Part shown: piece by piece, positions 36,915-57,956 of the stretch | Layout: every line of letters starts with the position of its first letter | Numbering within the stretch: position 1 is the stretch's first letter | Assembly: GCA_025699005.1 (NCBI GenBank) | Contig: JAILWI010000002.1 | Span: forward strand, 217,778 to 281,777 | Reading direction: 5' to 3' | Length of the DNA stretch: 64,000 nt | From: Chloroflexota bacterium | GTDB lineage: Bacteria > Chloroflexota > Limnocylindria > QHBO01 | Notes under the pieces: model-generated | What the model saw: only the letters and a program-made list of their open reading frames with translations | Told to the model about the DNA's origin: nothing | Databases searched by the model: none | Position numbers and translations under genes: made by a program

Positions 36915-37157
36915 TCAGCCGTCGAACACGGAGCAGCTCATCCGCGGGCTGCGCTCCTCGTCCACTGTCTCGAGGAGGTGGCAGCCAAGGCAATCGTCGA
37001 CGGCCACGATCCCGCCCAGGGGACAGATGACCTCCGACTCGGCCGTCCATCGGAGCTGATGGTGGCACTGCACCCATGAGATGCCCGTCCGCGGCGGGGG
37101 AGGGAGGTGATCCGTTGCAGGCGCCGACGCGCGGCGATCCGTGCGCGCCACGGTCAC
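36915..37157 (-). CDS. small Cys/His-rich hypothetical protein (possible metal-binding)
   Basis: 80 aa ORF whose ATG overlaps the stop of the upstream CBS gene (ATGA). Cys pattern C-x13-C-x10-C-x2-CH. Confidence 0.3.
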   Translation of the reverse strand: MTVARTDRRASAPATDHLPPPPRTGISWVQCHHQLRWTAESEVICPLGGIVAVDDCLGCHLLETVDEERSPRMSCSVFDG

Positions 37158-37570
37158 ATCTCCGCGGCGAGCGCCACGAAGTCCATGGCGGACAGGACGC
37201 CCACGGGCCGGCCGTGGTCGTCGACGGCCACCAGGCGATGGAGGTGCTCGTCGTGCATGAGGCGGGCCGCGTCCCGGAGCGTCGCACCGTCGTCGATGGT
37301 CACCGGCGGCGCGCTCATGACCTCGCCGATCAGGACATGGGGGGCCCGGTGCCGGATGAGCTCCTGGACGGATGGCATGGCGAGGTAGAGGAGATCGGTC
37401 TGGCTGATGACGCCGACGAGGTGGCCCTCGGCGTCGGTGACCGGGAGTCCGGTGATGCGGTGCGTTCGCATCATGTCCTCGGCCTCGGTCAGCGAGGCGT
37501 CGGCGCGGATGCAGATCGGATCGATCGTCATGAGGTCAGCGACCCGCAGGTCGGTGGTGATGAGCGTCAT
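37154..37570 (-). CDS. CBS-pair domain protein (hypoxic-response-protein-like)
   Basis: 138 aa, two CBS motifs. GAGGAG RBS upstream of the ATG at 37570. Confidence 0.8.
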   Translation of the reverse strand: MTLITTDLRVADLMTIDPICIRADASLTEAEDMMRTHRITGLPVTDAEGHLVGVISQTDLLYLAMPSVQELIRHRAPHVLIGEVMSAPPVTIDDGATLRDAARLMHDEHLHRLVAVDDHGRPVGVLSAMDFVALAAEM

Positions 37571-37659
37571 CGGAGACTCCTCGCGCGGTGGATGTATGCC
37601 GCCAGCCTCCTCCGCGGCCGGCCGCGCGGCGATGGCCGTCCGGCCCGATCGCCGATGAC

Positions 37660-37742
37660 GAAGGTCCCGATCGGGCTTCCGGCTTCCCGTCGCGCCGGAG
37701 CGATCGTGACCACGGTCCCGCGAGGTCGGGCCGTTCGGCCGA
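37660..37742. promoter_or_regulatory. two copies of a GGTCCCG-N(4-7)-CGGG(C) palindromic motif in the divergent promoter region between the two CBS genes
   Basis: cgAAGGTCCCGATCGGGCttcc and caCGGTCCCGcgaggTCGGGCc, read directly. Confidence 0.4.
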
Positions 37743-37820
37743 TCCGCAACCCGGCAGGAAGGCGGAACCATGGTGCCGATTCGATCCCATCGGACCGACC
37801 CAGCCCGCAGGAGGTGCACC

Positions 37821-55194: not shown

Positions 55195-55674
55195 CCGATC
55201 CGGCGCGATCGTTCGCGCCCACTCGCGGATGAGCTCCCAGTCGCGGAAGTCACCGTCGGGCGAGCGGACCATCCGCGTGATGATTCGCTCGGCGAAGTCC
55301 AGGTTCTCGCCATCCACGCGCCCGGCGAAGACCCGGTGGTCGCGTGCCCCCAGCTCCCGTGCCCACCGGACGGCGTCGGAGGGCGGCTCGTCGGGCGTCA
55401 ACGGCGTTCCGATCGGCCCGCTGGAGAACAGCCAGACCGGACGCTGCCGCAGCGCGGTCCGGTGGCGCTCGCCGAAGCGGCGCGCCGACGGCATCCAGCG
55501 TCCGCCGTACACCGCGCTGCCGAGGACCACGGCGTCGTACGCACTGCAGTCGCGCACCAGGTCCGGCTCGGCGATGTCCACGTCGTTCCCGGCGCGTCGC
55601 AGCTCGTCGGCGATGGCCTCCGCGATCTCGCGGGTCGCCCCGTGCTTCGAGGCGGTCGAAACGAGGATGTGCAT
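55123..55674 (-). CDS. flavodoxin-like fold protein
   Basis: MHILVSTASKHGATREIAEAIA flavodoxin-like N-terminus. The 3' end overlaps the lhr 3' end by 72 bp (convergent). Confidence 0.55.
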   Translation of the reverse strand: MHILVSTASKHGATREIAEAIADELRRAGNDVDIAEPDLVRDCSAYDAVVLGSAVYGGRWMPSARRFGERHRTALRQRPVWLFSSGPIGTPLTPDEPPSDAVRWARELGARDHRVFAGRVDGENLDFAERIITRMVRSPDGDFRDWELIREWARTIAPDRSGSAKDVAAVAGVEAGLEERAGQ

Positions 55675-55971
55675 CTGACGGTCACGGTGCGGGTTGGGCG
55701 CCGAGCATGCATCGGGCGTCGGCGCCGGGTCGTGGGCCGGTCGTCACGATTCCGCGGGTCGGTCGGCCCGCAGCGGGCGGCGCCAGCGCGGATCGATCGG
55801 TCCGAATGGCCTGCGGCAAGAGGTCCCTCGGCATCTGGCCGCGATGGCGCGCCGGGTCGACGATGCGGATCGGGAGCGGGTGAGGCCCTGGAGCTTCGGA
55901 GCCCGAAGCGCAGGTGCCCATGCAGCTTCGCCCGCTCCCGGCTACCAGCCTCTGCCTCTGAGGAGCTCGCG

Positions 55972-56931
55972 ATGACCCGGATCGTGATCGGCGTTGATGG
56001 TTCCCCCCACTCGCTCGTGGCCGTCGAGCTCGTCGCCGGCATGAGCTGGCCGCGGCCGACGCACGTGCACCTCGTCCTGGGCCATGAGCCGCCCACCGAT
56101 TGGGCCGCCCGGATGCCCGGCGGCGACTGGTTTCCGGGTCAGGATGCCGAGACGCGACGCGCCCTCGAGCGAACGCTCGACGGCATCGCGGAGGTTCTCC
56201 ACCGGGGCGGGCGAACCGTCTCGGTGCACGTCGCTCCCGAGCCACCTGCGCGGGCCCTGCTCGAGATGGCCGCGTCGGTGGCAGCGGACCTCATCGTGGT
56301 CGGGAGCCGCGGTCGCGGACCGGCAGCCACCGCACTGCTCGGCTCAGTGTCCGCAGCGGTCGCCGACCATGCGCCGTGTCCGGTGCTGGTGGCTCGCTAC
56401 CCGGAGGTGACCCGGCTGCTGGTTGCCACCGATGGGTCCCCGGAAGCCGCCCGGATCCCGGAGGTGCTGGATCACTGGCCCGCGCTCCGTCAGCTCCCGG
56501 TGGACGTCGTGACGGTGTCCCGCCCGCCCTCGCGCGACGCGTCGGCGTTCGTCACGCCGTGGTCGTTTCCCGAGCGCGAGGGCGCTGGCTCACCGGCACT
56601 CCATCGATCCGCGCCAGCCATCCGTGTGGCGAACCAGCTCCGTGCTGCCGGGTGGCGCGTGGGCGCGACGATCTCGCGCACGGGCGACGCGCCGGCCGAG
56701 ATCCTCCACGCGGCACACGACCACGGGTGCGACCTCATCGTGACCGGATCGCGCGGGCTCGGAGACCTGCGCCGTGTGCTCGTCGGCAGCGTCGCGCACG
56801 AGGTGATGCTTCGGGCCCAGCAGTCCGTCCTCATCGTCCGTGGCCACGTGCCGGCGGACGCTCCGGTGCGGGACACGGTTCCGGTCACCCACGGGGTTGG
56901 TGCCGTCGAGGCTGGCTCGTCCGGAGGCTAG
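55972..56931 (+). CDS. tandem universal stress protein (two UspA domains)
   Basis: MTRIVIGVDGSPHS... and VVGSRGRGPAATALLGSVS / VTGSRGLGDLRRVLVGSVA ATP-motif blocks. GAGGAG RBS upstream of the ATG at 55972. Confidence 0.8.
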   Translation: MTRIVIGVDGSPHSLVAVELVAGMSWPRPTHVHLVLGHEPPTDWAARMPGGDWFPGQDAETRRALERTLDGIAEVLHRGGRTVSVHVAPEPPARALLEMAASVAADLIVVGSRGRGPAATALLGSVSAAVADHAPCPVLVARYPEVTRLLVATDGSPEAARIPEVLDHWPALRQLPVDVVTVSRPPSRDASAFVTPWSFPEREGAGSPALHRSAPAIRVANQLRAAGWRVGATISRTGDAPAEILHAAHDHGCDLIVTGSRGLGDLRRVLVGSVAHEVMLRAQQSVLIVRGHVPADAPVRDTVPVTHGVGAVEAGSSGG

Positions 56932-57956
56932 GGCCCGTCGACGGCCACGGCGGACTCGACGACCATCTGCGCGCGGCAGTCGAGCACGGCTCGCTCCGGG
57001 CTGGCGGGATCGTCGGCGACGTCGGCGGCATCGTCGCAGTCTTCGGCGGCGGGGTCGTCGAGGTGGACCCGCAGCTCGATCCACGTCCCGCGGGGAGGCA
57101 TGGCGACGCCCGATGCCGGGTCGATGGAGACCGTGGTGCCGACGTCGGCCTCGTCGATCGTGACGTAGGCGTCATTGGTGCTCTGGCAGTACAGCCAGCC
57201 ACTCGGCTCGGCCTGCGCCGCGCAGCTTCCGCCCGTACCGGCATCATCCGGCAACTCGGGCCAGAAGGCGCGGAACGTGATCGGCTCCGCTCCGAAGCAC
57301 GCCAGCCGCTCGAGATTCGTGCGCCCGAGGATCACCGTGCCGGCCGTCAGCGGAGCCGCCGGACACTCGAGCGCGTGCGCTGCGAGCCACGCGTCGCCGT
57401 TCTCGCTTCGCCCGGCGAGCCAGCCGAACCAGGCCGGGCAGTTGTAGGGGTCGGTGGTGAAGGGCCCGGCACACCCGGAGTTCGGCGGCAGGCCCATGGC
57501 GGACACCAGGTACCACGAGAACCCATCGGCCTGGACCGGACCGTCGACGACGAATCCGACAGTTCCCAGCTCCACGCTGCCCAGCCGCTCCGCGTCCACC
57601 GACGGCCCGCCGCGCACCGAGATTCGTTCGACGGTCGTCTCGACCACCGTGTCCCGGGGGATGGCGTCGGGTGCCGTCGACGGCGTCGAGCTACCGGAGG
57701 GGGCTGCCGACGATGTGCCGGCCGATGGAGCGGGAGACGACGGCAACGCCGATGGCGACGAAGAGGTCGCCGCAGACGGGGAGCCCGAAGCGGACGCCGT
57801 GCCGGGATCGCCGCCCCCGAGCACCGCGAACGCGAGCACGATGAGCAGGAGCACGAGCAGCACGATCCCGAGGATCATCGGCAGGGGGGTGCGCTCACGA
57901 TGGCGCCGCCGCAGAGGGCGCTGGGGGCGAAGCGGGGGATACGGCGCGTCGCTCAC
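56928..57956 (-). CDS. membrane-anchored exported hypothetical protein with Ser/Pro/Ala-rich linker
   Basis: N-terminal TM helix, low-complexity SASGSPSAATSSSPSALPSSPAPS linker, Cys-containing globular domain. Confidence 0.5.
   Translation of the reverse strand: MSDAPYPPLRPQRPLRRRHRERTPLPMILGIVLLVLLLIVLAFAVLGGGDPGTASASGSPSAATSSSPSALPSSPAPSAGTSSAAPSGSSTPSTAPDAIPRDTVVETTVERISVRGGPSVDAERLGSVELGTVGFVVDGPVQADGFSWYLVSAMGLPPNSGCAGPFTTDPYNCPAWFGWLAGRSENGDAWLAAHALECPAAPLTAGTVILGRTNLERLACFGAEPITFRAFWPELPDDAGTGGSCAAQAEPSGWLYCQSTNDAYVTIDEADVGTTVSIDPASGVAMPPRGTWIELRVHLDDPAAEDCDDAADVADDPASPERAVLDCRAQMVVESAVAVDGP

Follow-up and report, generated by a model that had tools for sequence, protein, structure and literature searches.

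A DevS/DosT–DevR-type two-component system predicted in a Limnocylindria bacterium, with candidate target operons beside it

The window analysed here is a stretch of 64,000 nucleotides from a Chloroflexota bacterium (GenBank assembly GCA_025699005.1, contig JAILWI010000002.1, positions 217,778 to 281,777). It encodes a sensor histidine kinase and a response regulator amid genes for universal stress proteins (USP), CBS-pair proteins, metabolic enzymes and cation transporters. The pair is probably a DevS/DosT–DevR-type system of a Limnocylindria bacterium, with several predicted target operons beside it. DevR/OsdR-type tandem boxes were detected in four intergenic regions of the gene cluster by a motif scan of the window. 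As these phased boxes occur almost nowhere else in the window, local co-regulation of the cluster genes is a well-founded prediction. An earlier reading of the same letters (the original prediction) had proposed a dormancy or hypoxia island around a DosS/DosR-like system. All the genes it listed were found in their places within about 20 kb, according to gene calls and to Pfam and NCBIfam.

Genes were called from third-position GC content and frame plots, and were annotated with Pfam and NCBIfam (Table 1). For comparison, 80 related loci were used, the choice of which was anchored on the regulator. The nearest relatives of the regulator (76–99% identity) come from soil metagenomes, and those that are named belong to metagenome-assembled genomes of Candidatus Limnocylindria/Limnocylindrales or of a 'Chloroflexi/Chloroflexota bacterium'. 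According to these closest relatives, the host, an uncultured soil bacterium, belongs to Chloroflexota, class Candidatus Limnocylindria, and the actinobacterial frame implied by the original prediction is wrong. Automated annotation at the Joint Genome Institute already names some of the relatives' proteins 'response regulator DevR'. In the literature searched, nothing was found that ties Limnocylindria to DosR, DevR or DevS.

The closest solved structure to the regulator is Mycobacterium tuberculosis DevR (3c3w) with 215 bits; VraR/LiaR gave 154 bits and NarL 116 bits. According to the BLASTP alignment, the regulator and DevR are 51% identical and 71% similar over 213 residues. The regulator is identical to DevR at D8/D9, at the phospho-acceptor D54, at T82 and K104, and at the base-contacting residues K179, K182 and N183. 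The recognition helix KTVKNYVS is common to the regulator, DevR and all sampled Limnocylindria orthologues, and the corresponding helix is KTVKTHVS in VraR and STVKVHVK in NarL. The almost residue-for-residue match with DevR is confined to the conserved blocks and does not extend to the protein as a whole. In the phylogeny check that had been proposed, the regulator grouped with DevR in a small neighbour-joining tree with few outgroups. NCBIfam holds no DevR- or DevS-specific model, and the equivalog scores there are below the cut-offs. At one related locus (L062, 13823–14450), a second DevR-type regulator is encoded about 3.8 kb downstream of the first. It is 56% identical to the regulator of the window and has the same KTVKNYVS helix; thus, some Limnocylindria genomes carry paralogous pairs.

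The end of the kinase gene and the start of the regulator gene share 8 bp, and the gene order given originally is corrected to kinase then regulator. The two genes are adjacent in 78 of the 80 related loci. The start of the kinase is uncertain (ATG 50626 or ATG 50497), and its N-terminal 137 residues show no family match in Pfam at E values up to 1. The single GAF domain covers residues 138–277, and HisKA_3 begins directly after it at residue 293. Orthologues as short as about 393 residues have room for only one GAF. The closest solved relatives of this domain are DevS GAF-A and DosT GAF-A (E values 1e-33 to 3e-35), and the identity to DevS GAF-A is 43%. The proximal haem ligand (DevS His149) is present here and kept in 75 of 77 kinase orthologues, and the distal tyrosine (DevS Tyr171) in 76. 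The position of DevS Glu87 is occupied by Gly here and in 73 of the 77, as in DosT (Gly85). Because of this Gly, the top match in the Protein Data Bank (PDB) is the DevS E87G mutant. At the position of DevS His89, the kinase has Val and DosT has Arg. The translation contains the H-box RDLHDSVIQ, and no transmembrane segment was found in the kinase (maximum 19-residue hydropathy 1.48). The likeness to DosS stands for the GAF-A match, the His/Tyr pair and the HisKA_3 and HATPase_c domains, but not for the number of GAF domains, which is one and not two. By every available sequence test, the two-component system is DevS/DosT–DevR-like. In M. tuberculosis, the DosT-type Gly goes with O2 binding. 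As the pocket resembles that of DosT, an O2-binding sensor, the kinase probably senses the loss of O2, or nitric oxide (NO) or carbon monoxide (CO).

The mycobacterial core GGGAC-N4-GTCCC, scanned in the window with two mismatches, gave 59 matches against 94.6 expected in shuffles and is uninformative at that tolerance. Therefore, a de novo count and a position weight matrix (PWM) were used instead. All perfect palindromes of the form 5-N(2–6)-5 were counted in the 80 related loci, intergenic against coding DNA according to the gene calls. GGGCC-N4-GGCCC was the most abundant of the intergenic-enriched palindromes, with 51 intergenic and 11 coding occurrences, or about 22-fold per base. The extended box, GGGCCGA(A/T)(C/T)GGCCC, is the published OsdR consensus AGGGCCGATCGGCCCT, which is a GC-rich version of the DevR box (PMC5069765). 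At PWM scores of at least 12, intergenic and coding DNA are separated 36-fold. A second site lies 21–23 bp away at 60 of 211 strong intergenic sites; the distances also peak at the harmonics of 43–45 and 64–66 bp, with almost nothing elsewhere. The boxes lie upstream of gene starts with modes near 42–43 and 64–66 bp. In M. tuberculosis, the P and S boxes are located at −42.5 and −63.5, and tandem boxes have been described as characteristic of DevR promoters (PMC3177182). A second conserved intergenic palindrome, CTGCATA-N5-TATGCG, was observed in 14 of the related loci (14 intergenic occurrences, 1 coding), about 5–10 kb upstream of the regulator (for example at L018 3063, L024 3053, L030 3091 and L067 2104). 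It does not occur in the window, and some other regulator presumably binds it.

In the window, nine intergenic matches score at least 10, and eight of them lie inside 36876–57000. This interval holds 1,598 of the 3,697 intergenic bases of the window (binomial p = 0.007 for eight of nine), and the coding background at the same score is 0.034 matches per kb. The eight strong matches fall in four promoter regions, always in phased pairs with a spacing of 22–23 bp. Between the divergent CBS genes, the first pair has its centres at 37639.5 (score 11.7) and 37661.5 (3.9), and the second at 37712.5 (5.4) and 37734.5 (13.9); the stronger box of each pair is nearer its gene. The two boxes of USP1 are centred 42.5 and 64.5 bp upstream of its ATG. 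Another pair, at 47.83 kb, lies in the divergent region between a small open reading frame (ORF) and the SRPBCC-fold gene. The region that separates the flavodoxin-family gene from USP2 has three boxes with centre-to-centre distances of 22 and 43 bp, the nearest centre lying 66.5 bp upstream of the flavodoxin-family start. The sole strong intergenic match outside the cluster (GGGACGTCCGGCAC, 13858–13871, score 10.2) is located 28 bp upstream of a LytR_cpsA_psr gene (13893–15278). It has no partner among matches scoring at least 8 and is probably a chance match.

The palindromes could also be sites of another regulator, or structural elements such as short hairpins, with the DevR-like regulator nearby only by coincidence. 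At a genomic GC content of 71%, GC-rich palindromes form easily, and folding of a 5-bp stem is conceivable. The mycobacterial core is not enriched in the window, as described above, and Crp-like (cyclic nucleotide-binding) and Rrf2 regulators are encoded nearby in relatives. However, the motif is the same as the OsdR/DevR site established by experiment (PMC5069765, PMC3177182), and the base-contact residues of DevR are conserved in the regulator. The 21–23 bp phasing with its harmonics fits the cooperative binding of the DevR family and is not a property of hairpins. The boxes also sit at preferred distances from gene starts and are rare in coding DNA, and the scanned interval showed no terminator-like T-tracts. 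An origin of this kind is very improbable.

On the DevS/DosT–DevR-type reading, the following mechanism is proposed. From what is known of the family, the soluble kinase, with its single haem-type GAF and DosT-like pocket, would autophosphorylate on the HisKA_3 histidine and pass the phosphate to the regulator aspartate that aligns to DevR D54. The phosphorylated regulator would bind cooperatively to pairs of GGG(C/A)C-N4-G(G/T)CCC two helical turns apart, a step that builds on the box pairs, on how they are spaced and on the DNA-contact residues described above as conserved. The genes predicted to be activated are CBS1, perhaps with its downstream small ORF, CBS2, USP1–CBS-BON, the SRPBCC-fold gene, the flavodoxin-family gene and USP2. 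Read-through from the USP1 promoter would probably bring in xfp–ackA, at a likelihood close to even, and the run of small ORF, CaCA exchanger and ATPase may, less probably, share the boxes at 47.83 kb. Physiologically, the response would serve maintenance under O2 limitation, in which phosphoketolase and acetate kinase would yield ATP by substrate-level phosphorylation and the transporters would serve cation homeostasis.

Several points weigh against this reading. With its few outgroups, the neighbour-joining tree is a weak form of the clade test. The kinase lacks the second GAF (GAF-B) of DevS/DosT, so the tandem-GAF arrangement is not seen. The PWM was built from intergenic sites of related loci that were themselves anchored on the regulator. 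The secondary boxes in the window score only 3.8–5.4, and matches scoring at least 3 occur 2.3 times per kb in coding DNA. No box scoring at least 4 was found in the window upstream of the kinase–regulator operon, and the autoregulation typical of DevR is not evident.

The stress genes beside the boxes resemble the mycobacterial regulon at the level of families. Nucleotide binding is a property of USP and CBS proteins. The structures matched by CBS1 and USP1 are generic CBS and USP ones from archaea and bacteria, and among the solved structures listed no match labelled M. tuberculosis was found for USP1 (E up to 1e-6) or CBS1 (E up to 1e-8). The term 'orthologous regulon' was therefore overstated, as no Rv2623 or Rv2626c match appeared among these structures at the thresholds used. 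The USP and CBS genes are taken here as same-family analogues of the M. tuberculosis regulon members. In relatives, counting boxes immediately upstream as well as those at the head of an operon, a box precedes 43 of 71 kinase, 28 of 43 USP, 7 of 14 CBS and three of four flavodoxin-family homologues. The corresponding figure is six of seven for the 178-residue SRPBCC-fold gene, which is convergent with the adjoining regulator gene and holds the same position in 11 relatives. Its product has no Pfam or NCBIfam match, and its 775 relatives are all unnamed. The AlphaFold2 model (mean predicted local distance difference test score 80.8) shows a helix-grip SRPBCC/Bet v1-like fold, and Foldseek matched it to CoxG, aromatase/cyclase and PYR/PYL folds with TM scores of about 0.5. 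The modelled fold suggests a small-ligand-binding protein. The small ORF at the head of the minus-strand transporter run has no family match in Pfam or NCBIfam; its one homologue, in L005, is preceded by a box. For the possible 80-residue ORF, the GTG start overlaps the CBS1 stop (GTGA). It contains Cys/His clusters (…CHH…CP…CLGCH…) and has no family match. Pfam searches at E values up to 1 gave nothing usable for the small ORFs.

The original prediction also counted xfp–ackA and a Ca2+-handling pair as members of the regulon, but these genes have no strong box of their own. Further points against the broad reading arise here. Upstream of xfp, only a weak palindrome was found (GGTACGAGCGTACC, score 4.7, 7 bp from the start). 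The boxes at 47.83 kb are 55–78 bp away from the SRPBCC-fold gene, whereas their distance to the small ORF at the head of the transporter run is 174 bp. When 80 metagenomic xfp loci of mixed taxa (GC 45–74%) were scanned, only about four had a box anywhere upstream. Of the 80 related loci, three have xfp and one has CaCA no more than 10 kb from the regulator, against 44 for USP; the numbers are 16 for CBS and 11 each for the P-type ATPase, the 178-residue gene and Lhr. The order ATPase–xfp–ackA without the USP insert recurs in L059, L071 and L075. These observations agree with a DevRS-like system whose targets are only the USP, CBS, SRPBCC-fold and flavodoxin-family genes, xfp–ackA, ATPase and CaCA being independently regulated. 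In that case, chance gene order would account for part of the '20 kb island'.

On the other hand, there is little space between the minus-strand genes that run from USP1 to ackA. The CBS-BON start overlaps the USP1 stop by 4 bp, xfp follows CBS-BON after the single gap of 48 bp, and the ackA start overlaps the xfp stop by 4 bp. No terminator-like site was found between them, and the packing permits co-transcription. As xfp is without a strong box, its control by boxes needs read-through from the USP1 promoter. In relatives, the ATPase is preceded by a box in five of nine cases, and xfp in the sole evaluable case. USP–xfp–ackA arrangements recur among the metagenomic xfp loci, and four of these (L091, L157, L137 and L095) give anecdotal support for the membership of xfp. 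In L091 (1033–6013, GC 0.69), a DevR-type regulator (EKTVKNYVS) is divergent from the boxes GGGACGAAGGTCCC and GGGTCCTACGGCCC, which are followed by USP–xfp–ackA. Read from sequence, this locus is independent evidence that xfp and ackA can sit in a DevR-type regulon. According to these results, the restriction to the small targets is a tentative alternative that we hold to be rather less than evenly probable. For the present genome, the predicted membership of xfp–ackA is about evenly balanced, and that of the Ca2+ transporters is placed somewhat lower.

The description of the ATPase as CtpF-like is fair at the level of the class. Its closest PDB match is the Listeria Ca2+-ATPase LMCA1 (E 3e-154), and its top NCBIfam models are IIA Ca2+-ATPases, with scores below the equivalog cut-offs. 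We take M. tuberculosis CtpF to belong to the P2A class, as the window ATPase does. The end of the CaCA gene overlaps the ATPase start, and its NCBIfam match is a calcium/sodium antiporter below the curated cut-off.

The genes flanked by boxes near the regulator in relatives bear on the signal. Besides the kinase, the commonest of 163 such genes are NirK-like copper nitrite reductases (24). Further ones are the acetyl-CoA hydrolase/transferase family (15), Rrf2 regulators (11) and cupredoxins (7), and ferredoxins, Crp-like proteins and pyruvate:ferredoxin oxidoreductase (PFOR) are also found. By sequence, the box-flanked genes across the class make up a set for low oxygen and nitrogen oxides. 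The nearest relatives have a box-carrying nirK-like gene between Lhr and the kinase, in many cases divergent from an Rrf2 gene (for example L001 7244–8290; L002 6809–7912 and 8053–8454; L005, L007, L012, L023 and L055). DevS and DosT respond also to NO and CO. The system might therefore be mainly a switch for nitric oxide and nitrite, linked to denitrification, and not one for hypoxia or 'dormancy'. However, Pfam scans, which covered part of the window, found no nirK-like or Rrf2 gene there; lhr abuts the kinase gene, and USP, CBS and fermentative genes make up the predicted targets here. The Gly that goes with O2 binding is present in the haem pocket, and signals of O2 and NO are not mutually exclusive. 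We consider a mainly NO-responsive switch unlikely, and loss of O2, or NO/CO, is retained as the probable signal. The absence of the nirK-like/Rrf2 module is probably the reason why no autoregulatory box is present in this genome.

The Lhr helicase gene, which is not box-controlled, splits the 20 kb island between the kinase and the flavodoxin/USP2 pair. The original prediction had named neither this gene nor the flavodoxin-family gene, the SRPBCC-fold gene and the two small ORFs. The order Lhr–kinase–regulator is kept in about 11 relatives, and a box precedes Lhr in one of 12, so that the gene acts as an internal negative control. The Lhr gene is an unrelated neighbour; neither in the window nor in relatives is it a target of the boxes. 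A perfect 22-bp palindrome (CTATCGAACACTTGTTCGATAG, 50678–50699) contains the SOS-box-like TCGAAC-N4-GTTCGA. It overlaps the first possible lhr start (TTG 50689), and the true start is thus probably further downstream. A LexA site at lhr was considered and rejected, since 11 of 13 relatives lack the palindrome upstream of lhr; the other two have only the inner GAAC-N4-GTTC core, inside the lhr gene.

The GC content is 0.70–0.75 over the whole window, and the cluster and its flanks are alike in base composition. Thus, the genes form a cluster that does not qualify as a genomic island by composition. Horizontal acquisition of a genomic island was rejected on the basis of this uniform composition and of the lack of a tRNA flanking the cluster. 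No integrase was seen among the Pfam-scanned genes, which cover part of the window. The sole match of the Rfam and tRNA scans is a tRNA-Gly at 15.3 kb, with nothing within the cluster. From 36.8 to 56.7 kb, the promoter scan found no promoter-like site, and the terminator scan found one terminator-like site, inside the kinase gene, which does not help with the operon structure. Just upstream of the cluster, a P1B-type heavy-metal ATPase gene with an HMA domain (30778–33036, minus strand) and a stand-alone receiver-domain gene (33205–33609, plus strand) were observed, both without boxes. At the other end, a gene convergent with USP2 (56928–57956, minus strand) encodes a 342-residue protein with a single strongly hydrophobic N-terminal segment. 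It has no usable Pfam match at E values up to 1, and no box was found upstream of it in the two relatives having a homologue.

Table 1. Genes and predicted binding boxes of the cluster, in order of position in the window (PWM scores in parentheses)
Feature	Position	Strand	Basis
Possible 80-aa ORF; membership uncertain	36915–37157	-	ORF list; minus-strand coding frame runs on
CBS-pair protein CBS1	37154–37570	-	Pfam CBS twice
Four boxes in two 22-bp pairs, between divergent CBS genes	37633–37741		PWM scan
CBS-pair protein CBS2	37821–38243	+	Pfam CBS twice; GGAGG ribosome-binding site before start
Acetate kinase ackA	38240–39340	-	Pfam Acetate_kinase; NCBIfam TIGR00016 above cut-off
Phosphoketolase xfp	39337–41745	-	Pfam XFP_N/XFP/XFP_C; NCBIfam phosphoketolase above cut-off
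CBS-pair + BON protein (CBS-BON)	41794–42531	-	Pfam CBS twice and BON; start codon map
Tandem universal stress protein USP1	42528–43529	-	Pfam Usp, two stretches
Tandem boxes CTGCCGAACGGCCC (11.9) and GGCCCAAGCGGCCC (10.9), 22 bp apart	43565–43600		PWM scan
P2A-type (SERCA/PMR1/LMCA1-like) cation ATPase	43602–46241	-	Pfam
CaCA-family cation/Ca2+ exchanger, two Na_Ca_ex repeats	46217–~47251	-	Pfam PF01699 twice
Small ORF, 105 aa, weak coding signal; heads minus-strand run	47343–47660	-	Third-position GC frame
Tandem boxes GGGACAGATGGCCC (12.3) and GGGACCTTGAGCCC (3.8), 23 bp centre to centre	47828–47864		PWM scan
Conserved 178-aa protein, predicted SRPBCC/Bet v1-like fold	47912–48448	+	AlphaFold2, Foldseek
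NarL-family response regulator, DevR-like	48445–49122	-	Pfam Response_reg (receiver) and C-terminal GerE helix-turn-helix
Sensor histidine kinase: N-terminal extension, one GAF, HisKA_3, HATPase_c	49115–50626	-	Pfam
Lhr helicase, 1,501 aa (4.5 kb): DEAD, Helicase_C, DEAD_assoc, four Lhr winged-helix domains	50689–55194	+	
Flavodoxin_5-family protein	55123–55674	-	Pfam PF12724
Three boxes GGGCCGGTCGTCAC (11.1), GGGTCGGTCGGCCC (10.8) and GGTCCGAATGGCCT (10.7)	55734–55812		PWM scan
Tandem universal stress protein USP2	55972–56931	+	Pfam Usp, two stretches; start codon map

The system is compared here with those described in two members of other lineages. Like the DevS/DosT–DevR system of M. tuberculosis, it has a kinase with a haem-type GAF (predicted here), HisKA_3 and HATPase_c and no membrane segment, a regulator with identical phospho-acceptor and DNA-contact residues, and tandem boxes of the same palindrome type two helical turns apart. 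The DosR regulon of M. tuberculosis includes tandem USPs, a CBS-pair protein and the P2-type cation ATPase ctpF, and these families recur among the genes here. Unlike M. tuberculosis, which belongs to Actinomycetota, the present host is a member of Chloroflexota. The kinase has one GAF instead of GAF-A and GAF-B, the kinase gene precedes the regulator gene, no USP gene is co-transcribed upstream (Rv3134c in M. tuberculosis), and no box stands upstream of the kinase–regulator operon. The box consensus is of the GGGCC type, whereas that of M. tuberculosis is GGGAC-TTTA-GTCCC. The xfp–ackA, CaCA, SRPBCC-fold and flavodoxin-family genes are not part of the described M. tuberculosis regulon. The proximal His, the distal Tyr and the Gly of the pocket are shared with DosT and kept in 73–76 of the 77 kinase orthologues, whereas the identity to the GAF-A domain is only 43%, and Val stands where DosT has Arg.

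In Streptomyces coelicolor, OsdR of the OsdK/OsdR pair (SCO0203/SCO0204) is a DevR orthologue in a non-pathogenic soil bacterium, and its consensus is essentially identical to the Limnocylindria box (PMC5069765). The regulator lies in the region SCO0167–SCO0219 amid box-preceded USP and anaerobic-metabolism genes, as here (PMC5069765). OsdR is 61% identical to DevR, against 51% for the present regulator, and its cluster holds nitrate reductase, nitroreductase and pyruvate phosphate dikinase genes, where the window has xfp–ackA, CBS-BON and Ca2+ transporters (PMC5069765). OsdR is also tied to the control of sporulation, which has no counterpart here (PMC5069765). Such clustering of targets around the regulator is thus not new, having been described earlier both in M. 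tuberculosis and for OsdR/OsdK of S. coelicolor (PMC5069765). The differences here are the phylum, the single-GAF kinase, the gene order and the missing autoregulatory site in this genome. The accessory content of CBS-BON, SRPBCC-fold and flavodoxin-family genes differs too, and perhaps also xfp–ackA and Ca2+ transport. The result is a new host for a well-known system and not a new kind of system, and the understanding of how a DosR-type system works is unchanged.

For the family, the chances seem to us about equal that haem-based O2/NO sensing by DevS/DevR is not an actinobacterial speciality, and that Limnocylindria use a minimal single-GAF version as a class-wide regulator of a flexible low-oxygen regulon. 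If so, the regulon of these bacteria would comprise USP, CBS, NirK-like nitrite reductase, CoA-transferase and ferredoxin genes, controlled through tandem boxes of the M. tuberculosis type, and some genomes would add a phosphoketolase–acetate kinase branch for ATP and Ca2+ transporters. The range of the DosR-type switch, which is a tuberculosis drug target, would be extended to another phylum, and a naturally minimal single-GAF sensor would be available for comparison with DosS and DosT. Limnocylindria are common and abundant in soils, and we know of no cultured, genetically tractable member. For these organisms, a predicted O2/NO-responsive regulon with a defined site would offer a testable explanation of their survival under waterlogging or in anoxic microsites.

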